Positions 3,908 through 50,607 of a stretch of DNA of 64,000 nucleotides are shown piece after piece. Position numbers and translations under genes: made by a program. The DNA is taken from positions 34,360 to 98,359 of the forward strand of contig JADHYL010000001.1 of assembly GCA_016782495.1 (NCBI GenBank), read 5' to 3'. Within the stretch, counting starts at the first letter, position 1. Every line of letters starts with the position of its first letter. Source of the stretch: Candidatus Omnitrophota bacterium. Lineage in GTDB: Bacteria > Omnitrophota > Gorgyraeia > JABMRN01 > RBG-13-46-9. A model generated the notes under the pieces. The model did not search any database. It was not told the DNA's origin and was given only the letters and a program-made list of their open reading frames with translations.

Positions 3908-4018
3908 ATCCAGAATAGCAATGTCTTCTGCCTTCTTGCCAAGGGCAGCATTGCCGATCAGCTTTGTCTTTTCTAGGGTTTCTATACCTTTTTCACCTCG
4001 CTTAAGAAACGGACGGAA

Positions 4019-4186
4019 TTATTTCAATTTTGCCGCTGTGTCTTTTGACACAACCTTCCAGCATTCGTAGTCGCCGGTCAGGGATTTGGTTACTGCGAAA
4101 AATCTCCCTTTTCGTTCCTCAATTCTGAAGTCAGACGCTTTGAATTTCTTCTTTGTTTTTACATCAAAAAATTCCATTTCTGCCAT
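4019..4186 (-). CDS. Hypothetical small protein of 55 aa (MAEMEFFDVKTKKKFKASDFRIEERKGRFFAVTKSLTGDYECWKVVSKDTAAKLK).
   Basis: Strong ribosome-binding site AAGGAGGTG 6 nt upstream of the ATG at 4186. TAA stop at 4019-4021. No family recognised. Confidence 0.45.
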   Translation of the reverse strand: MAEMEFFDVKTKKKFKASDFRIEERKGRFFAVTKSLTGDYECWKVVSKDTAAKLK

Positions 4187-4314
4187 TACAGCACCTCCTT
4201 TTTAACCCCCTCGACCAATTACTACACGGTTCAAATACACAATTGGTGTGGGGTAAATTTGCCATAAGTGTATCATAATCTCGAGTTAATTTCAAGTTTG
4301 AAAGGTAAAATGCG

Positions 4315-4911
4315 TTATTTAACATAGAGTTTTTTTGTTTTAATGTATTTACGCACGCTTTTCGGAACTAGATGCGCGAGGCACTTACCCTTTCGCACAA
4401 GAAGCCTGATTTCCGTCGACGATATGTCTTTTTTTGGGATATCCAATCTCAAGACGCTCGAAAAACGAGTTTCCGTTTTAAACCCGGGCCTCGGCACAAC
4501 AACAAACCGTAAGAGTGCTGTAAGTTTCGCAATTTTTTTCCATTTCTTTAATCCGGCGAGTGAATCCGATCCTATGAGGAAAAAAAGTTCTGTTTTTTTT
4601 CCATATTTTTTTTTCAAGGATTTGGCAGTTTTTATTGAGTAAGACTTGCCCTTCTGGCGCAATTCATACTGGGAAACCACAAATCTTTTCTTGTTGGCCG
4701 TGGCTAGATCGAGCATGCGGAGCCTGTCAGTATTCGTTGCGTTTCCGCGTATTTTTTTATGCGGTGGGATAGCGGTCGGGATAAATATGATTTTGTCCAG
4801 GCGTAACTTTTTAAGTGTCTCGCGTGCTATGTGTATGTGGCCGTTGTGTACGGGGTTAAATGTGCCGCCTAATATACCGATTCGTTTATTTGCGAATTTG
4901 CCCATTGCCAA
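4315..4911 (-). CDS. nadD: Nicotinate-nucleotide adenylyltransferase.
   Basis: Motif GILGGTFNPVHNGHIHIA, the (H/T)xGH nucleotidyltransferase signature. 198 aa. Confidence 0.9.
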   Translation of the reverse strand: MAMGKFANKRIGILGGTFNPVHNGHIHIARETLKKLRLDKIIFIPTAIPPHKKIRGNATNTDRLRMLDLATANKKRFVVSQYELRQKGKSYSIKTAKSLKKKYGKKTELFFLIGSDSLAGLKKWKKIAKLTALLRFVVVPRPGFKTETRFSSVLRLDIPKKDISSTEIRLLVRKGKCLAHLVPKSVRKYIKTKKLYVK

Positions 4912-6166: not shown

Positions 6167-7251
6167 AGGATCACGAGATTATCCCTGTGCACAACCTCAT
6201 CGTGGTCTTTATATCCCAGAACCGATTCGATTTCACCTGTCTTTAGTCCTTTTATTCTCTCTATTTCTTTTGACGAGTAGTTTGTAAGCCCCCTGGCGAA
6301 TTCCTTTTTCTTGGAATCCGATATCCCCACTACATCGCCGGCCTTAAAGCTTCCGTCTTTCCCCGCGATACCCGAAATACCCGAAGCAAGCAAACTCTTG
6401 CTCTTGGCGACAAGGGCTTTTTTTGCGCCTTCATCGACGATTATCCTGCCCTTAACCTTAGAGGAATAAGCAATCCATCTTTTCTTCGCCTTTTTCTTAA
6501 CGGGCATTGCCTTGAAGTAGGTGTATGTAGCTTTGCCTTCTAATAAATCTAATATGATATTTTCTTTTGTGCCTTTGGCTATAAAACAATCTATTCCGGA
6601 TTGCATGGCCCTCTTTGCGGCTTCGATCTTCGTAACCATACCGCCCTTTGTAAAAGACAATAATTTCTTATCTACAAGCTTTTCGATGTCTTTGGTAATC
6701 TCTTCCACATACTTTTTTATTCTACCATTCTTATCAAGAAGGCCGAGTACATCCGTCAACATGATTAAACAATCGGCTTCGGATAAGTCTGCGACGAGGC
6801 TTGAAAGCCTGTCGTTATCACCGCACTTGATTTCTTCGGTAGAAACCGTGTCATTCTCGTTAACTATTGGAATAATGTTTTCAGAAAGAAGCGCATCGAT
6901 CGTATATTTTATATTGAGATACCGGCGCCTGTCGTTAAAATCTTCCTGCGTTAAAAGAATTTGACCTGTTAAATAATTTCCTTTTTTAAAAGCTTCGTTA
7001 TAAAGATGCATTAGTTCATTCTGTCCCACAGAAGCCATTGCCTGTAAATCCGATAATGAATTGCCTCTTAATTTTAAAATGCCTCTGCCGGCTCCGATTG
7101 CACCTGATGAAACAAGCATAACTTTCGCGCCTTTGTCCTTAAGTTGTGAAACCTGAGAAGCGATACTTGTTATAATTCCTTCATCTATCGTGCCGTCTCC
7201 CTTCGTCAGGACGCTCGTTCCGATTTTTATTACGATTTTTTTATACTTCAT
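6163..7251 (-). CDS. proB: Glutamate 5-kinase with a C-terminal PUA domain.
   Basis: N-terminus MKYKKIVIKIGTSVLT... with amino-acid-kinase family motifs. 362 aa. Operon context obg-proB-proA. Confidence 0.9.
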   Translation of the reverse strand: MKYKKIVIKIGTSVLTKGDGTIDEGIITSIASQVSQLKDKGAKVMLVSSGAIGAGRGILKLRGNSLSDLQAMASVGQNELMHLYNEAFKKGNYLTGQILLTQEDFNDRRRYLNIKYTIDALLSENIIPIVNENDTVSTEEIKCGDNDRLSSLVADLSEADCLIMLTDVLGLLDKNGRIKKYVEEITKDIEKLVDKKLLSFTKGGMVTKIEAAKRAMQSGIDCFIAKGTKENIILDLLEGKATYTYFKAMPVKKKAKKRWIAYSSKVKGRIIVDEGAKKALVAKSKSLLASGISGIAGKDGSFKAGDVVGISDSKKKEFARGLTNYSSKEIERIKGLKTGEIESVLGYKDHDEVVHRDNLVIL

Positions 7252-8210
7252 CTTTCAGTCGAAATCCTCCATATCTCATTCAATAATTCTTTAATTCCCT
7301 CGCCTGTAACGGCGGAAATAGGGAATATTTTTTTATCGATCTTCTTCCTGAATATGTCTAAATTGCCCTTTGAGTCCACCAGATCCATCTTGTTGCATGC
7401 AACTATCTGGGCTTTTTTCTCAAGGTGAGCGCCGTAGAGAGAAAGTTCCTTATTAATCGACAAATAATCGTTGTACGGGTCTCTTCCTTCCAGAGCCGCG
7501 GTGTCCACCATGTGCAGCAAGATCTTTGTTCTTTCTATGTGGCGCAAAAATTTATCTCCGAGGCCCCTCCCGCTATGGGCGCCCTCGATAAGGCCGGGCA
7601 TGTCCGCAAACGTTAAATCCCCCTCATACATCCTGACGATGCCGAGTGAGGGTGCTTTTGTTGTAAACGGATAATCGGCAATTTTTGATTTTGCGCTTGA
7701 TATCCGCGAAATAAGCGTGGATTTACCGACGTTTGGGTAGCCGATAATGCCCACATCGGCTATCAGCTTCAATTCCAAGAAGAGCTCTTTTTCCTCGCCC
7801 TTCTCGCCTGGCGTGGCATCCCTCTTTCGGGTATTTCCCTTTCCGTATTTTCCGCCGACGGCAGCTATAACTTCTTCGCCGTCATGCGCCATGTCCCTGA
7901 TGACAAGCTCGGTCGTCGCGTCCGTAATTACGGTTCCGGCCGGGATCCGAATGTATGAATTCTCGCCACGCTCTCCCTTCTTATTATTTGAGCCGCCGTG
8001 GCCCCCGCGACCTGCCTTGAAATGCCTCTTGTATTGGAAATCTAAAAGTGTGTGAATGTTCTTATCGACTTTGAATATTACGTTCCCGCCGTCGCCGCCG
8101 TCGCCACCGTTAGGCTTGCCCTTGCGGACGCGCCTGTCACGGTAGAAACTTGTGCATCCGTTTCCTCCGTCGCCCGCCGTGACGTGGATTTTTGCTTGGT
8201 CGATAAGCAT
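7248..8210 (-). CDS. obg: GTPase Obg/CgtA.
   Basis: Obg fold N-terminus (FYRDRRVRKGKPNGGDGGDGGNV), G1 (GYPNVGKST) and G4 (NKMD). Confidence 0.9.
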   Translation of the reverse strand: MLIDQAKIHVTAGDGGNGCTSFYRDRRVRKGKPNGGDGGDGGNVIFKVDKNIHTLLDFQYKRHFKAGRGGHGGSNNKKGERGENSYIRIPAGTVITDATTELVIRDMAHDGEEVIAAVGGKYGKGNTRKRDATPGEKGEEKELFLELKLIADVGIIGYPNVGKSTLISRISSAKSKIADYPFTTKAPSLGIVRMYEGDLTFADMPGLIEGAHSGRGLGDKFLRHIERTKILLHMVDTAALEGRDPYNDYLSINKELSLYGAHLEKKAQIVACNKMDLVDSKGNLDIFRKKIDKKIFPISAVTGEGIKELLNEIWRISTER

Positions 8211-8354
8211 TTGCCCATTTTTGTGTCATTGCGAGGCGTCATAGACGCCGAAGCAATCTCAGTTTTGAGATCCCTCGGGCGCCTTATGCCCTCGGGATGA
8301 AATTCGACCTTATGGCTTACCTCGACTAATACTCGTGTAAGTCATGGTCTCATT

Positions 8355-8597
8355 TCATTTTGGTAAGATACTTACGATTCTTGAGTAGGAAAAATTTACA
8401 ATGCCGTCTATTTTGGCGAAAAGCGTATCGTCCCTGCCGATACCCACATTCATGCCCGGCTTAAAGGGTGTGCCGTGCTGCCTTACTATAATGCTACCTG
8501 CTCTCACAAGTTGGCCGCCGAAACGTTTTACACCTAATCTCTGCGAGTTGGAATCTCTTCCGTTCCTTGAACTTCCCAATCCCTTTTTATGCGCCAT
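8355..8597 (-). CDS. rpmA: 50S ribosomal protein L27.
   Basis: [28 protein letters not shown]...; 80 aa. Confidence 0.95.
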
Positions 8598-45550: not shown

Positions 45551-45772
45551 TTATTGTACAATCTCCACAACCTTACTTTTTGACCTTAAACCACTTAATA
45601 TCCTGACTCTGTTCTTTTTTGTTCCAAAGTATTCGGCAAGCATCTCCGTGAGCTTTTGATTTGCCCTGCTTTCGATTGCCGGTTGGTGCATATAAATTTT
45701 ATAAGAATTCCCGCCTAATTTTACTATCTCTTCTTTTGACGCCCTTGGCTGAACTCTAAGGTGTATCTTCAT
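45551..45772 (-). CDS. yggU: YggU/DUF167 family protein. Start at MKIHLRV, forming an ATGA overlap with the yggT stop.
   Basis: KIHLRVQPRASKEEIV...YKIYM..PAIE..AN. Confidence 0.65.
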   Translation of the reverse strand: MKIHLRVQPRASKEEIVKLGGNSYKIYMHQPAIESRANQKLTEMLAEYFGTKKNRVRILSGLRSKSKVVEIVQ

Positions 45773-46071
45773 TAGTGCATTAACCGCATGGCGTAGTGGC
45801 TCAGAACTCCGACGACAAAACTTCTTAAAAACCACAGAACCATGAAAGCCAAAATCGGCGAGAAATCTATGGGACCTGCTTGCAGTGGAAGCCTGCGAAA
45901 TGGCGCGAGGATCGGTTCTGTTATCCTGAACAGGATCTGGACGATTTCACTATAGGGATTAACACCGAACCAGGACAGGATAATCCTTATCACCAGCAAA
46001 AAATACAGGACGTTGAAAATCATGTTAAAGAGGTAGGCGAGGCTTGCGAGTAACTGTCCGAGTATATACAT
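45772..46071 (-). CDS. yggT: YggT/Ycf19 family membrane protein.
   Basis: 99 aa with two transmembrane helices, in the conserved yggS-proC-yggT context. Confidence 0.75.
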   Translation of the reverse strand: MYILGQLLASLAYLFNMIFNVLYFLLVIRIILSWFGVNPYSEIVQILFRITEPILAPFRRLPLQAGPIDFSPILAFMVLWFLRSFVVGVLSHYAMRLMH

Positions 46072-46090
46072 GTTTGGGCTCCTCCAATGA

Positions 46091-46127
46091 AAGGCACCCT
46101 TGACATCTTCAATGTCAAGGGTGCCTT
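46091..46127 (-). repeat. Perfect 16-bp hairpin: AAGGCACCCTTGACAT, loop CTTCA, then ATGTCAAGGGTGCCTT. It abuts the proC stop and is part of a repeated element also found at the ddl stop.
   Basis: Seen directly. It lies between the proC TAG and the yggT ribosome-binding site GGAGGAG. Confidence 0.8.
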
Positions 46128-46940
46128 CTATAAATTCCTCCCTCGAAGGGTCGAAAGCTCTCTTGACTTTTTTGCTGCGGCCGTCACAGCCCTCACCACA
46201 AGGCGCTTAAATTCTTTTGATTTCAGAATCTTTAATGCCGCCTCGGTAGTTCCCCTTTTCGACGTTATGCGCTTTCTTAAGACATCCGGCGTAAGTTTCA
46301 AACTATCCAGCAATGCTCCACTTCCAACTAAAGTCGCGGCTGCAAGCCTTGCGGCGGCCTCTTTCTTTATTCCGAACCTTACCGCAGCATCCTCAAGAAG
46401 CTCCGTTAAATAGAAATAATAAGCCGGACCGCTTCCTATAATCGCGGTTACGGCATCCATCTTTGTTTCATCAATCTCCATTACCTCGCCTATCGAAGAA
46501 AAGATCTTTTGCACGAACGCCTTGTTTTTTACTGCCTTGTTATGGGCAAGGCATGTTATGCTTTTTCCGGCCAGTGCCGCCATGTTCGGCATGGCGCGCG
46601 TTAAGGCGATTTTGCTGTTATTAATCATCGCGCCGATTTGTGAGAGCGTGACTCCGGCCATAATGGAAACCAAGTGCTTGGAATTATCAAGTTCCCCTTT
46701 GATTGAACCAAACAAACCCTTGGAATCCTGGGGCTTTACGACTATAATAATGAAGTTACACTTTTTTGCGATTTCGATATTTGTGCTCATGCGAGCGCCG
46801 AATTTTTTATAAAGCTCCCTCGTTTTATACGAATCCCTGTCGCTTATGTAAACGGTATTAAACGGCACGACTTTTTTTGACAGAATGCCGCTTGCAATGG
46901 CGCTACCCATATTTCCGCAACCGATTATCCCTATCCTCAT
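46128..46940 (-). CDS. proC: Pyrroline-5-carboxylate reductase.
   Basis: MRIGIIGCGNMGSAIASGIL Rossmann N-terminus. 270 aa. Confidence 0.9.
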   Translation of the reverse strand: MRIGIIGCGNMGSAIASGILSKKVVPFNTVYISDRDSYKTRELYKKFGARMSTNIEIAKKCNFIIIVVKPQDSKGLFGSIKGELDNSKHLVSIMAGVTLSQIGAMINNSKIALTRAMPNMAALAGKSITCLAHNKAVKNKAFVQKIFSSIGEVMEIDETKMDAVTAIIGSGPAYYFYLTELLEDAAVRFGIKKEAAARLAAATLVGSGALLDSLKLTPDVLRKRITSKRGTTEAALKILKSKEFKRLVVRAVTAAAKKSRELSTLRGRNL

Positions 46941-46968: not shown

Positions 46969-47625
46969 TTAGGCGGAAAATATCGCGCTACCTATGCGTA
47001 CCATGGTAGCGCCTTCTTCTACAGCAACCTCAAAATCCTGTGTCATACCCATTGAAAGTTCTTTCAGCCTGTGGGCATTCGCCAATTCTTTCAATTTTCT
47101 GAAATAAGGGCGTGTGACTTCGGCATCAGCTACAAGAGGTGCCATTGTCATCAAGCCTAGTACGTTTAGGTGTTTCAATGATCGGGTTTCTTCTAAAAAA
47201 TTTTCTATATCATTGGGCTTGATACCGAATTTACTTCCCTCACCCGAAACATTGACCTCCAGAAGAATATCCTGAACTTTGTTGTTTTTCGCGGCCTCCC
47301 GGTCTAATATATATGCTAATCTTACGCTATCAACGGAGTGAATAAGCGAAAATATCCTGACCGCTTCCCTTACCTTGTTCGACTGAAGGTGACCTATCAT
47401 GTGCCATGCAAGCACATGGGAATTCAATAAGTTCCTCTTTAATAAGGCTTCTTTTACGCGATTTTCACCGATGTCGGCGACACCAGCCTCTACTGCCTCG
47501 CGCACCTGGTCGATCTTGGCTTCCTTCGTAACGACCACGATTTTTACGCTTTCGAGGTCGCGACCTACCCTTTCTGCGGCAGCTTTTATCCTTTCTTTCA
47601 CTCGAGTGAGGTTTTCTTTTACCAT
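46969..47625 (-). CDS. yggS: YggS/PLPHP pyridoxal-phosphate homeostasis protein.
   Basis: 218-aa alanine-racemase-N fold. The lysine-containing motif (VVVTKEAK) and the C-terminal R.G are present. Confidence 0.85.
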   Translation of the reverse strand: MVKENLTRVKERIKAAAERVGRDLESVKIVVVTKEAKIDQVREAVEAGVADIGENRVKEALLKRNLLNSHVLAWHMIGHLQSNKVREAVRIFSLIHSVDSVRLAYILDREAAKNNKVQDILLEVNVSGEGSKFGIKPNDIENFLEETRSLKHLNVLGLMTMAPLVADAEVTRPYFRKLKELANAHRLKELSMGMTQDFEVAVEEGATMVRIGSAIFSA

Positions 47626-47634
47626 TTTGACGGT

Positions 47635-47711
47635 ATCCCGAATGTAGAAACATCTTTTAAAGTATCATCGGGATCCCGAAGATACTTTAAAAGAAGAATA
47701 TCTTATTCGGG
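47635..47711 (-). repeat. 77-nt near-perfect palindrome centred on TCGGGATCCCGA, located between the ftsA stop and the yggS start.
   Basis: The arms share TCCCGAAT, ATCTTTTAAAGTATC/GATACTTTAAAAGA and TCGGGA. Confidence 0.7.
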
Positions 47712-47761
47712 ATAGGGTAGCACATAAGTTTTCTAATGTCAATTGAAAATGGAAATTGGAA

Positions 47762-48823
47762 TTAGAAGTAGCTTTCGTAGATATCGTGAATCTTGCGGAA
47801 GGCTTTGCGAATCGGGTTCTTGTACCGACCGGAGGTCTTATATTCTGTGGCTATCTGATTAATAAGTCCGATCGTTGAGGTGTGAATAATTGCTTCTTGC
47901 GAGTTTAAATTGTGTCCTGCGTTTCTTGCGATTCCTATTCTCGCCGGCACCCCGAGCAGTTTTTCCGTCTCTTCGATAGCACCCTCAAGGAGTGCGCCCC
48001 CGCCTGTTACAACGGCGGAAGAAAAATTATTCTTGCCAGCGGCTAGACCAGCAAACACCTCTTTTAACAGTGCGGTTAACTTCTCCTTGTTTACGCGCAT
48101 TTTATCGTCCAGAATAGCGCTTGCGCCCTTCTTTATAATATGAGCGCTTTTTAGCATGCTGTTCTTAAAAATAAGCTCCTCGGTCAACGAATCGCCTATA
48201 TCGAGCAATAATACGCCGTTTTCCTTTTCTTGCCCGGTCAAAACGCCGTTTGCGGAAGCGATGCCGGAAAGATGTATTCCGTCCAAAAGAAGCCCGGCAT
48301 GGTCTATGCATTTGGTAATACTTTGCAGTTTTGATTGGCTTGCCGTCGCGATAAATGCCTCTACTTCCATTTTTATACCGTAAAGGCCTACGGGATTTCT
48401 GATGCTTGATGCCCCGCCATCAATGTAAAAACCCCTTACCGCTTTATCTATGACAATCCTGTCAAGCGGAACCTTCACCATGGCCGCGATTTCCAGGCAC
48501 CTTTTGACATCCCTTTTTGTAATTTCGCGTGGTATCTTAGATAGCGGGGCCATGCCACGTGCAATGTCCATCCGTACGTCAGCACTCTTGGTCGTGACAA
48601 AAACGTTTTTAATCCTTTTTTGCCGGTGTCGCTGCAACTTGCACACTACGGAATTTATGTCTTCGACGGCTTTATCCATATCCGTTATCTCTCCACCGCT
48701 TATGCCCCGCGAATATAAATTCTCGAGCGACAGGATATTGACTCGGCCATCCTTCCGCACGCTGGCCGAAACTGCGGCGATCTTGTTCGAACCCAAATCT
48801 ATAACCGTAACTAACTTTTTCAT
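47762..48823 (-). CDS. ftsA: Cell division protein FtsA. Start at MKKLVTVIDLG; the track ORF extends to 48931.
   Basis: Actin/SHS2 fold motifs (VIDLGSNKI, DIGDSLTE, VTGGGALLEG). Follows ftsQ. Confidence 0.88.
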   Translation of the reverse strand: MKKLVTVIDLGSNKIAAVSASVRKDGRVNILSLENLYSRGISGGEITDMDKAVEDINSVVCKLQRHRQKRIKNVFVTTKSADVRMDIARGMAPLSKIPREITKRDVKRCLEIAAMVKVPLDRIVIDKAVRGFYIDGGASSIRNPVGLYGIKMEVEAFIATASQSKLQSITKCIDHAGLLLDGIHLSGIASANGVLTGQEKENGVLLLDIGDSLTEELIFKNSMLKSAHIIKKGASAILDDKMRVNKEKLTALLKEVFAGLAAGKNNFSSAVVTGGGALLEGAIEETEKLLGVPARIGIARNAGHNLNSQEAIIHTSTIGLINQIATEYKTSGRYKNPIRKAFRKIHDIYESYF

Positions 48824-48830
48824 ACCCATC

Positions 48831-49607
48831 CTACCTCGGCCCGATAACAACGTCCTTAAATCTGAGATCCAGGTATTTGATATTCTTTTTGTCGAGATCT
48901 GGATTTTGAAGAGTCGTCTTGAGCATCTCAAGCCTTTTGCGAAAGTCTTCGCCCCCTATTTTCACTTCTATAGTGTCGTCAATGTAAAAAGAAATATTTT
49001 TGTAATTTGAAACATCAATCGTGGTCAGGTTGTAGTCGGAGAGTATAGAGCTTTCTTTAAGGGCGTCCAAAAGTAAGAACGCACTTTCTAATTGGCGGCT
49101 TTTCAAGTTCTCTCCCACGCGGGGCCTTGCCCAGGCGGAAAATCCTATTATAGTAGGGAGTTTGCCGCTTTTTATGCCCGGCGATAATATCATTCCGGTC
49201 CGGTCAACGGGAAAATATCTCCGGGCTTTTATCCGGGCGACGGGAATTCGTGGGATGACATCTATTTCCAGCCTGTTCGGCAGAACCCTTTTGACGACCG
49301 CATTTTTGACGGTCGGATAGTCATGTTTTATCCTGGAGGACAAAGCATTGATATTAATATCAAAAATATTCCGCCCTTTGTACAGCCGCAATAAATCATG
49401 CCGGTCGAGTCCGGAAGCGTAGCTTAAATCGTTTACCTGGATGTGCTCCAGTTTAAAATAAGACGAATTTCTAAAAAATAAAAATACTGTTAAAATTAAA
49501 ATAAAGGCTACTAAAAAAGGCAGAATTTTCTTTGTTACGGCTTTTGCCTTTGCCGGTTCGATTCTCTTTGGTCCGGGTCTCCGTTTTTTTACATTATCCT
49601 TGGCCAT
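48831..49607 (-). CDS. ftsQ: Cell division protein FtsQ/DivIB.
   Basis: N-terminal basic region, a transmembrane helix, and POTRA-like and beta domains. 258 aa. Position is ddl-ftsQ-ftsA. Confidence 0.75.
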   Translation of the reverse strand: MAKDNVKKRRPGPKRIEPAKAKAVTKKILPFLVAFILILTVFLFFRNSSYFKLEHIQVNDLSYASGLDRHDLLRLYKGRNIFDININALSSRIKHDYPTVKNAVVKRVLPNRLEIDVIPRIPVARIKARRYFPVDRTGMILSPGIKSGKLPTIIGFSAWARPRVGENLKSRQLESAFLLLDALKESSILSDYNLTTIDVSNYKNISFYIDDTIEVKIGGEDFRKRLEMLKTTLQNPDLDKKNIKYLDLRFKDVVIGPR

Positions 49608-49633
49608 TTATTACCTCCTTCAATGAGACCTGT

Positions 49634-49700
49634 CCTTGACATTTATGATGTCAAGGGTATCTTCTATAAGTTTACCCTCCGAATGGTCGAATTGAACCCC
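49634..49700 (-). repeat. Second copy of the hairpin repeat (CCTTGACAT, 5 nt, ATGTCAAGG, then GGT..CTTCTATAA..TT..CCCTCCGAA.GGTCGAA). It overlaps the ddl stop codon.
   Basis: About 80% identical over roughly 60 nt to 46095-46160. Confidence 0.7.
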
Positions 49701-50607
49701 TCCTGTACGCCAGCTCTACCAGCTTAAGACACAGATCTTCAAAGGTTATACCCGCTTTCGCGGCCGCCTTCGGTAAAAGGCTGCGCTGGGTCATGCCAGG
49801 AATCGTGTTTATCTCCAATACGTAAATGTTCCCGCCGGAATCCATGCGCATGTCAACGCGGGAAAAATCCCTGCAACCAAGCGCTTTATGCGCCTTTAGC
49901 GCCAATTCTTGAGCCCGTTTTGAATCTTCTTCCTTTAATTCTGCTGGAACAATATATTTCGTACCTTCATCTAAATACTTGGCGTCAAAATCGTATACAT
50001 TGTGTTTCGTAACGATCTCAATGATGGGAAGCGCTCTCTCCTCCAGGATGCCGACAGTCAGTTCCCTGCCGTGTATATATTCTTCGACGATGGCCGTCTT
50101 GCCGTAACCGAAAGCCATCTCCAGAGCTTGCCTCGCATGGATTTTATCACTGACTATCGATAGCCCTATGCTGGATCCCTCATGTTGGGGTTTAACTACA
50201 AAAGGTACCTCAAGGCTTGCTGTAATGTCCACTTCTTCAGCATTCTGCCTGACTATCATATATTTAGGCACGCTCAAGCCATTTGTCAGAAATAGTTCAC
50301 GCGAAGCAATTTTATCCAGCGCAAGCCTCGAGGCCCGAGCGCCTGAGCCCGTGTAGGGCAAATTTGATTCTTCCAATATTGTCTGGACCGATCCGTCTTC
50401 GCCAAACTTGCCGTGCAGGGCGATAAATACCAGAGCCGCGTCGATATTTTTTATCTTCGAGTGAAAGTCGCTATCAACATCCAGAAAATCCACCTCTTGG
50501 CGTTGTCTCTTAAGTGCGTCAAAAACGGCCCGCCCGCTTTTAAGGCTGATCTCACGCTCGCTGGAAGGCCCTCCGGCAAGCACAACTATCTTACCATAGC
50601 TCGCCAT
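49672..50607 (-). CDS. ddl: D-alanine--D-alanine ligase.
   Basis: MASYGKIVVLAGGPSSEREISLKSGRAV and an ATP-grasp fold. 311 aa. Confidence 0.9.
   Translation of the reverse strand: MASYGKIVVLAGGPSSEREISLKSGRAVFDALKRQRQEVDFLDVDSDFHSKIKNIDAALVFIALHGKFGEDGSVQTILEESNLPYTGSGARASRLALDKIASRELFLTNGLSVPKYMIVRQNAEEVDITASLEVPFVVKPQHEGSSIGLSIVSDKIHARQALEMAFGYGKTAIVEEYIHGRELTVGILEERALPIIEIVTKHNVYDFDAKYLDEGTKYIVPAELKEEDSKRAQELALKAHKALGCRDFSRVDMRMDSGGNIYVLEINTIPGMTQRSLLPKAAAKAGITFEDLCLKLVELAYRRGSIRPFGG

Follow-up and report, generated by a model that had tools for sequence, protein, structure and literature searches.

Two copies of a hairpin-forming repeat lie at gene junctions in the cell-wall and division region of a Candidatus Omnitrophota genome (contig JADHYL010000001.1). 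In this part of the 64,000-nt stretch analysed, called the window here, the gene order is murC, murB, ddl, ftsQ, ftsA, yggS, proC, yggT, a DUF167 gene and a methylthioadenosine (MTA) phosphorylase-like gene of the PNP_UDP_1 family, all on the minus strand, with copy 1 of the repeat between proC and yggT and copy 2 between ddl and ftsQ (Table 1). Both copies contain the palindrome CCTTGACAT-N5-ATGTCAAGG in exact form; it has no other match in the window, and the number expected from shuffled sequence is 0.02. The repeat that a first-pass annotation, made from the letters alone, had noticed at the ends of proC and ddl is thus real. It had been given as about 60 nt, which proves too short: a direct repeat of 77 nt (46079-46155 against 49615-49691, 74% identity) extends over the Shine-Dalgarno sequence of the downstream gene and so includes its GGAGG.

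The two copies differ in how well they fold. On the plus strand, the stem of copy 1 is the perfect 16 bp first described, 46091-46106 pairing with 46112-46127, and folding it as minus-strand mRNA, a check that the annotation had proposed, gives 18 pairs around a 3-nt loop (-39.6 kcal/mol for 94 nt of mRNA, z = -5.1). Copy 2 retains just the 9-bp core and folds at -22 kcal/mol with z = -1.5. From each copy come the last seven or eight codons and the stop of proC or ddl, the proC stop standing right after the stem and that of ddl further in, as had been seen. Also as reported, the common DNA is read in different frames, giving a C-terminus of ...STLRGRNL in ProC and ...GSIRPFGG in Ddl; stops are present in all three frames of copy 2 and in two of copy 1. 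No U-tract follows the hairpin on the mRNA strand at either window copy. What follows, in agreement with the earlier description, is the ribosome-binding site of the next gene, with GGAGG 7 nt before the yggT ATG and 6 nt before that of ftsQ.

Both window copies are lineage-specific insertions of a dispersed, structured repeat, because relatives have empty, overlapping or abutting junctions. Among loci fetched from other genomes (denoted by L-numbers), six syntenic relatives (L124, L125, L127, L128, L135 and L136) have ddl and ftsQ overlapping by 14-19 nt, the ddl tail there reading through the ftsQ Shine-Dalgarno sequence and ATG. A clean 78-nt block, window 49622-49699, is missing from all four of the relatives aligned (L124, L125, L127 and L128). 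Comparison of 120 Ddl homologues shows the core to be conserved up to ...LAYKRR and the tails beyond to be hypervariable, that of the window being unique. At the other junction, three syntenic relatives (L127, L135 and L136) have a ProC of 265 aa ending in ...ELS(R/K)(E/G)A, with the yggT start 1-4 nt on, while in the window ProC is 270 aa long with a new tail, and 56 nt separate proC from yggT. The contig of the window comes from ENA assembly ERZ24794676, and the assemblies of runs SRR12042682 and ERR13325278 contain an identical ProC. The comparison of orthologous 3' ends thus finds different C-termini and no repeat, and the search for more copies, described below, finds them in other genomes; the annotation's suggestion of an inserted element bringing its own stop, like a repetitive extragenic palindromic (REP) sequence or a miniature inverted-repeat transposable element (MITE), has fared well on both counts.

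At both junctions the inserted DNA lies just behind a Shine-Dalgarno-like run within the last codons of the upstream gene, and beyond the insert stands a second (A)GGAGG, 6-7 nt ahead of the downstream ATG. To judge from these two sites, the second run could be a target-site duplication or a GGAGG carried by the element itself. The overlapping ddl/ftsQ-type genes of the relatives are probably translationally coupled, and since the relatives overlap or abut at exactly these junctions, insertion would disrupt an older coupling arrangement rather than create one. The inner segment of copy 1 at 46139-46155, TTCGAGGGAGG, is the same as the ancestral proC tail and yggT Shine-Dalgarno sequence of L127 (11840-11866); a similar TTCGGAGG(G/A) occurs in copy 2 and in one copy of the Black Sea genome discussed below. 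The match to L127 may stem from microhomology where the element inserted, or flanking sequence may have been captured.

The palindrome itself is far from confined to the window. In 596 Gb of sequence, with each species represented by a single genome and with counts that are a lower bound, it was found in exact form at no fewer than 120 loci, and 114 of those listed come from some 61 assemblies labelled as Omnitrophota or as other members of the Planctomycetes-Verrucomicrobia-Chlamydiae (PVC) group. Among the loci listed, 59 are labelled Omnitrophota or Omnitrophica, 46 'uncultured Planctomycetia' or 'Planctomycetales' and nine unclassified or Brocadiia; a further six of those listed are from unrelated taxa, a number close to the nine or so that chance would give in 596 Gb. 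The first-pass annotation, which saw two copies, underestimated the scale, these being one variant of a modular family whose 23-nt core is found unaltered in the ~61 PVC-labelled assemblies. The usual form is 10-3-10, (Y)CCTTGACATC-NNN-GATGTCAAGG(R), with a pyrimidine before and a purine after, and the triplet in the loop varies freely, with symmetry between the strands (AAA 28 against TTT 23, GAA 9 against TTC 9). Degenerate copies are few and, in 789 kb, the 268 half-sites set against 124 full palindromes leave only about 20 isolated. In one fragmented metagenome-assembled genome (MAG), CAYZNX01, palindrome copies are found on 18 contigs, and many contigs of this MAG begin or end exactly at the palindrome, so that the repeats probably break assemblies. 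In this higher-GC MAG (L011, L036, L097, L099 and L107) a different repeat, GCGAGGTGGATTGGCAGACAGGACCCGC, flanks the palindrome symmetrically in place of the type A units described next.

A second module usually adjoins the palindrome. This type A frame unit is a hairpin of about 65 nt in which GGG-TTnAAT is followed by an internal loop (2x2, UC/UC), a roughly 13-bp helix with ACTTAYG/CRTAAGT as its distal part, a variable tip and the closing 3' strand UC-ATTnAA. Across 44 frame units, compensatory changes are seen in 16 of 20 pairs, and the pair closing the internal loop is G-C in 33 and A-U in 11. Within the stems, terminal pair excluded, G-U and A-C mismatches number 12 and 10, with neither an excess nor a strand asymmetry that would tell which strand folds. 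The outer stem, TTnAAT/ATTnAA, was looked at as a possible terminal inverted repeat; it is just 6 bp and is covarying, not fixed. A covariance model of the frame unit, R1, recognises 114 units in 666 kb of fetched loci and two in the window. One of these, at 8295-8363 (62.3 bits), was in the training alignment; the other is copy 2 (32.2 bits, E = 3e-4), which was not, and which carries a 50-nt insert in place of the frame's inner helix. Copy 1, the 5' half of which is degenerate, is missed by R1.

On these alignments, then, the window element reads as the palindrome nested within a frame unit. On the mRNA strand, copy 2 has the complete frame, GGG-TTCAAT-UC-GACC...[palindrome hairpin]...GGTC-UC-ATTGAA-GGAGG, and copy 1 the remnant TTCGACC-CTTC..GAAG-[hairpin]-..TTTCATT-GGAGGAG. 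A Black Sea MAG (JADHYN010000014.1) has three further examples of the nested composite, each upstream of an unrelated open reading frame (ORF); by eye, rather than by Pfam scan, these ORFs resemble MlaD, the RibD C-terminal domain and a HAD phosphatase. There are two subtypes, one with loop CATAA and flank ...ACAGGT, the other with loop TGAAG and the stem extension CAC/GTG. Both are common to the window and the Black Sea MAG at non-orthologous sites, the signature of a dispersed family with subfamilies. The central module is interchangeable too, since two composites of locus L067 are centred on another hairpin (CCCCGCACCTTT...AAAGGTGCGGGG) and not on the TTGACAT palindrome. The same locus has an 800-nt intergenic cluster (3960-4740) of several type A units in both orientations. 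The nested-composite pattern had no match in JGI metagenomes. With Rfam 15, there was no match at gathering score in the window or for the units in 20 loci, and around copy 1 only chance-level matches, with E up to 10. Literature searches found no published description of these Omnitrophota repeats.

Table 1. Positions of the repeat copies and associated features in the window, and of the exact 23-nt palindrome in structured RNAs of other loci
Feature	Position	Strand	Basis or remark
Copy 1, composite repeat, proC-yggT junction	46079..46155	-	Direct-repeat search and alignments; proC/yggT 1-4 nt apart in L127, L135, L136
Hairpin of copy 1, 16-18 perfect pairs	46091..46127	-	Invariant palindrome core 46098-46120
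proC stop (TAG), repeat-supplied	46128..46130	-	CTA directly after stem; last 7 codons, TLRGRNL, also repeat-derived
yggT Shine-Dalgarno sequence, GGAGGAG	46079..46085	-	At 3' edge of repeat
Copy 2, composite repeat, ddl-ftsQ junction	49613..49699	-	Match to covariance model R1 and alignments
Invariant palindrome core of copy 2 (9-5-9)	49634..49656	-	
ddl stop (TAA), repeat-supplied	49672..49674	-	Tail SIRPFGG likewise repeat-encoded
yggT	45772-46071	-	ATG at 46069-46071
proC	46128-46940	-	270 aa
ftsQ	48831-49607	-	
ddl	49672-50607	-	
Third family member, plain type A unit, between rpmA (L27) and obg	8295..8363	+	R1, training member
RNase P RNA, helix P12	L071 1030-1052		Exact palindrome as tip
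RNase P RNA, helix P3	L038 5008-5030; L078 1495-1517		Exact palindrome as tip
Cyclic di-GMP (c-di-GMP)-I riboswitches, two different hairpins	L018 2293-2315; L113 7820-7842		Exact palindrome as tip
Cobalamin riboswitch stem	L022 2010-2032		Exact palindrome as tip
Group I introns, peripheral stems	L068 6296-6318; L101 442-464; L133 1284-1306 (IMG/VR viral contig)		Exact palindrome

The placement of the repeats relative to genes is strongly patterned. Out of 130 palindromes, 113 are intergenic, seven overlap an ORF end and ten fall within called ORFs, although some of these ORFs are in fact RNA genes. Of the 93 with flanking genes assigned, 75 lie between co-directional genes, 14 between convergent and four between divergent ones, which is the pattern of REP sequences and argues against a bidirectional promoter. 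Frame units flank the palindrome on one side or on both, their 5' ends pointing towards it, and composites of the form frame unit(-)/palindrome/frame unit(+) exist; of the 16 two-sided composites, 15 have exactly one unit adjoining a gene start. The downstream genes are diverse core genes, among them groES/EL, recA, mreB, gap, tpi and the ribosomal-protein genes S7, S19, L18 and L27, and are probably highly expressed; ORFs bracketed by repeats are likewise housekeeping genes. In several units, among them L034 353-425, L037 5476-5545 and L122 389-456, the ATG of the downstream ORF directly abuts the 3' stem, as CTCATTnAA(T)ATG, with no Shine-Dalgarno sequence between them.

Orientation with respect to transcription is not constant even within the window, copy 2 being sense and the 8295-8363 unit antisense to both rpmA (8355-8597) and obg (7248-8210). 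This plain unit reads GGA-TGAAAT-UC-GACC..GGCTTAC/GTAAGTC..GGTC-UC-ATTTCA and has the rpmA stop, TGA (8355-8357), in its outer stem. The spacer at 8211-8300 holds further small hairpins.

The ddl 3' junction appears to be a recurrent landing site, three further lineages having insertions there, although L126, L138 and L139 were placed in the family by eye from short motifs and not with R1. L126 (6900-6939) and L139 (2190-2246) have other inserted hairpin repeats right after the Shine-Dalgarno sequence, and both contigs end within the repeat. In L138 a hairpin of 63 nt has been inserted in frame (2405-2470), lengthening Ddl by 21 residues.

The palindrome is also found, unchanged, at the helix tips of unrelated structured RNAs of other genomes, namely RNase P RNA, riboswitches and group I introns (Table 1). 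In RNase P RNA it replaces a helix of similar size and is not a simple extension. Of six matches in viral contigs, one is the palindrome within a group I intron and the rest are unrelated palindromes. Identical 20-nt sequences in such independent contexts cannot be convergent, so the hairpin must have been copied into these positions. This may mean either that a mobile hairpin has landed in permissive tips or that there has been selection for a common binding partner. One could go further and see in the palindrome a self-propagating or trans-recognised hairpin module, more than passive junk and able to overwrite unrelated helix tips, those of the intergenic repeat units included, an idea that we find rather doubtful. 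The helix-tip pattern would imply a dedicated protein that reads the duplex, as RNA or DNA, or else a new mechanism of 'hairpin homing' or gene conversion.

How are these observations best explained? We think it likely that the repeat is one of a modular family, present across the phylum Omnitrophota, of intergenic repeats that are small, structured and palindromic and comparable to REP sequences and bacterial interspersed mosaic elements (BIMEs) or to MITEs. Following the split from the nearest sequenced relatives, one copy would have inserted at each of the ddl/ftsQ and proC/yggT junctions, landing just behind the Shine-Dalgarno-like run in the last codons of the upstream gene. The sequence shows that the original C-terminal tail has been swapped for seven or eight codons and a stop belonging to the element, that the genes have been moved 56-64 nt apart with GGAGG left 6-7 nt ahead of the downstream ATG, and that the polycistronic mRNA has acquired a stable, self-contained hairpin domain. 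The element presumably spreads as DNA, given its resemblance to REP, BIME and REPIN (REP doublets forming hairpins) elements in keeping its hairpins, in the strand symmetry of its loops, and in nesting and forming mosaic clusters; hairpin-dependent single-strand transposition and recombination are candidate routes. Copies would persist only where they are tolerated, at permissive sites such as gene boundaries. An effect of the hairpin on mRNA stability, processing or ddl-to-ftsQ coupling, of the sort first suggested for it, is possible but would be secondary.

REP, BIME and REPIN sequences are mobilised by single-strand transposases of the HUH class (PMC3116915, PMC3337134, PMC5581495). The Omnitrophota repeats resemble those of Enterobacteria and Pseudomonas (Bertels & Rainey 2011, PMC3116915) in being short, imperfect extragenic palindromes in which the hairpin is maintained; here the palindrome is 23 nt long, present in many copies and intergenic in the large majority of them. 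Like BIMEs, they form mosaic clusters of alternating orientation, as in the two-sided composites and the L067 cluster, and occupy transcribed gaps between co-directional or convergent genes while avoiding divergent promoter regions. Their core, however, is common to a whole phylum and not, as in REP sequences, to a genus; by eye, they show no conserved 5' tetranucleotide of the GTAG type; and their nested units, of two or three modules, often abut start codons and overlap stop codons. No REP-associated tyrosine transposase (RAYT) was found with them in the fetched loci.

The serious rival is that the element is a functional cis-acting RNA module, intercistronic or within 5' untranslated regions, that is read by a phylum-specific protein or RNase setting mRNA ends, stability or translation initiation, and is kept by selection. 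Several observations favour it, and some of these weigh against a mobile repeat as well. Just over half of the frame units (46 of 91, 51%) end close to an ORF of at least 60 aa, from -2 to +29 nt ahead of its start, with GGAGG between or the ATG abutting, and the strong covariation of the stems could, like this positioning, reflect a function at the RNA level rather than mere tolerance. The downstream genes are core and probably well expressed; the palindrome's place at the tips of helices in structured RNAs (Table 1) would suit a common RNA-binding partner. REP sequences are normally lineage-specific, and it is unusual for them that 18-20 nt should be kept exact over ~61 species-level assemblies, most of them Omnitrophota. 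Signs of a target-site duplication are ambiguous, (A)GGAGG standing on both sides of both window insertions when these are compared with the empty sites, with no consistent duplication over the 44 frame units. In the 1.03 Mb of loci fetched from about 70 genomes, a tblastn search with E. coli RayT gave no match below E = 0.5, and no transposase or other mobilising enzyme is present among the repeat-flanked ORFs of those loci. No related autonomous insertion sequence was seen in them either, no systematic search for one having been made. Against the cis-acting module, however, orientation to transcription is not fixed, as the antisense unit at 8295-8363 and the flanking of the palindrome by units pointing both ways make clear. 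The stems lack an excess of G-U over A-C, the loop is unconstrained and its triplets strand-symmetric, close relatives do without the element at the same junctions, and there is no match to an Rfam family. On balance we regard such a module as unlikely, and prefer the dispersed mobile repeat.

The remaining explanations fare worse on the same data. The perfect TTGACA on both strands of the 10-3-10 palindrome, the AT-rich hexamer (TTnAAT or TAAATT) often found 16-17 bp downstream, and a plus-strand scan that gives TTGACA-16-TATCTT at 49636 all call to mind a protein site on the DNA, whether a bidirectional sigma-70-type promoter, an operator or a site through which a dimeric protein organises the chromosome. 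Only four of the 93 palindromes lie between divergent genes, however; the hexamer is the 5' strand of a stem, covaries with its partner and does not keep the -11 A; the mRNA strand of both window copies, despite a perfect -35, has no acceptable -10 at 16-18 nt; and the palindrome is found within RNase P RNA and riboswitch aptamers as well. Such a site is very unlikely. The downstream genes have no common function and so do not form a regulon, which also argues against the sigma-54, LexA, HAIR and other operators considered for the palindrome. A DNA uptake sequence was likewise rejected on the half-site count, isolated half-sites being too rare for an uptake-signal-like word. It is highly improbable that the element serves, at the ddl-ftsQ and proC-yggT junctions, as an intrinsic or factor-assisted transcription terminator or attenuator. 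The stem of copy 1 is very stable and contains GC pairs, palindromes are about as frequent between convergent genes as expected, and a terminator scan flags the plus strand of copy 2. The flagged site is on the antisense strand, though, the mRNA strand lacks a U-tract after either hairpin, and the downstream genes are essential and belong to operons that overlap or are contiguous in relatives, with no promoter after the hairpin. Finally, the presence of just two nested copies in the 64-kb window, together with the identity of TTCGAGGGAGG in copy 1 to the ancestral proC tail of L127, might have suggested a one-off duplication of one junction onto the other, 3.5 kb away, with no repeat family involved. 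This is improbable in the extreme, and is refuted by the finding of the same composite, with TTCAATTCGACCCTTC and both loop subtypes, at unrelated loci of another genome and by the recognition of copy 2 by R1, a model built from other genomes.

Beyond REP sequences, the closest parallels to the repeat lie among other small bacterial elements. Rickettsia palindromic elements (RPEs), which are 100-150 bp long and mostly form in-frame internal insertions that leave the host protein functional, are said to have been described by Ogata and colleagues in 2000 as inserting in protein-coding and RNA genes, where they are reportedly tolerated at permissive positions. The Omnitrophota repeats are similar in being palindromic and in occurring in genes, RNA genes included, and the L138 insertion in the ddl tail is in frame. 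Unlike RPEs, the copies seen here mostly truncate the tail and supply a stop, both window copies ending the ORF with their own, and the RNA genes hold only the 23-nt hairpin at helix tips. Correia elements of Neisseria, also known as Correia repeat enclosed elements (CREE) or neisserial miniature insertion sequences (NEMIS), have 25-bp terminal inverted repeats, a TA target duplication, integration host factor (IHF) sites, RNase III cleavage and promoter activity. They too are MITE-like, lie at gene boundaries, are co-transcribed and form long hairpins, and they can alter the expression of their neighbours; none of the 25-bp repeats, TA duplication, IHF sites, RNase III cleavage or promoter activity has been shown for the Omnitrophota repeat. 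Intervening sequences in rRNA helices offer a further parallel as sporadic extra hairpins at helix tips of an essential structured RNA. They are longer, are excised by RNase III and do not share one conserved sequence with intergenic repeats.

The matched empty sites constitute a natural experiment in which a small structured repeat has remodelled essential, tightly coupled cell-wall and division junctions. They should be useful both for the study of translational coupling and for correcting the annotation of gene ends in Omnitrophota MAGs, the assembly of which is probably fragmented by these repeats, many contigs ending exactly in them. An invariant hairpin found throughout a phylum, and in its ribozymes and riboswitches as well, is a surprising property, and raises the question of what recognises or spreads a 20-nt duplex.

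The genomic neighbourhood has two further features of note. In the window (46969-48931), yggS-proC-yggT directly follows ftsA and there is no ftsZ in its usual place after ftsA in the division and cell wall (dcw) cluster; the same is true of L127, L135 and L136. In two relatives murC and murB are called as one fused gene of about 740 aa (L125 3773-5995 and L128 4753-6981).

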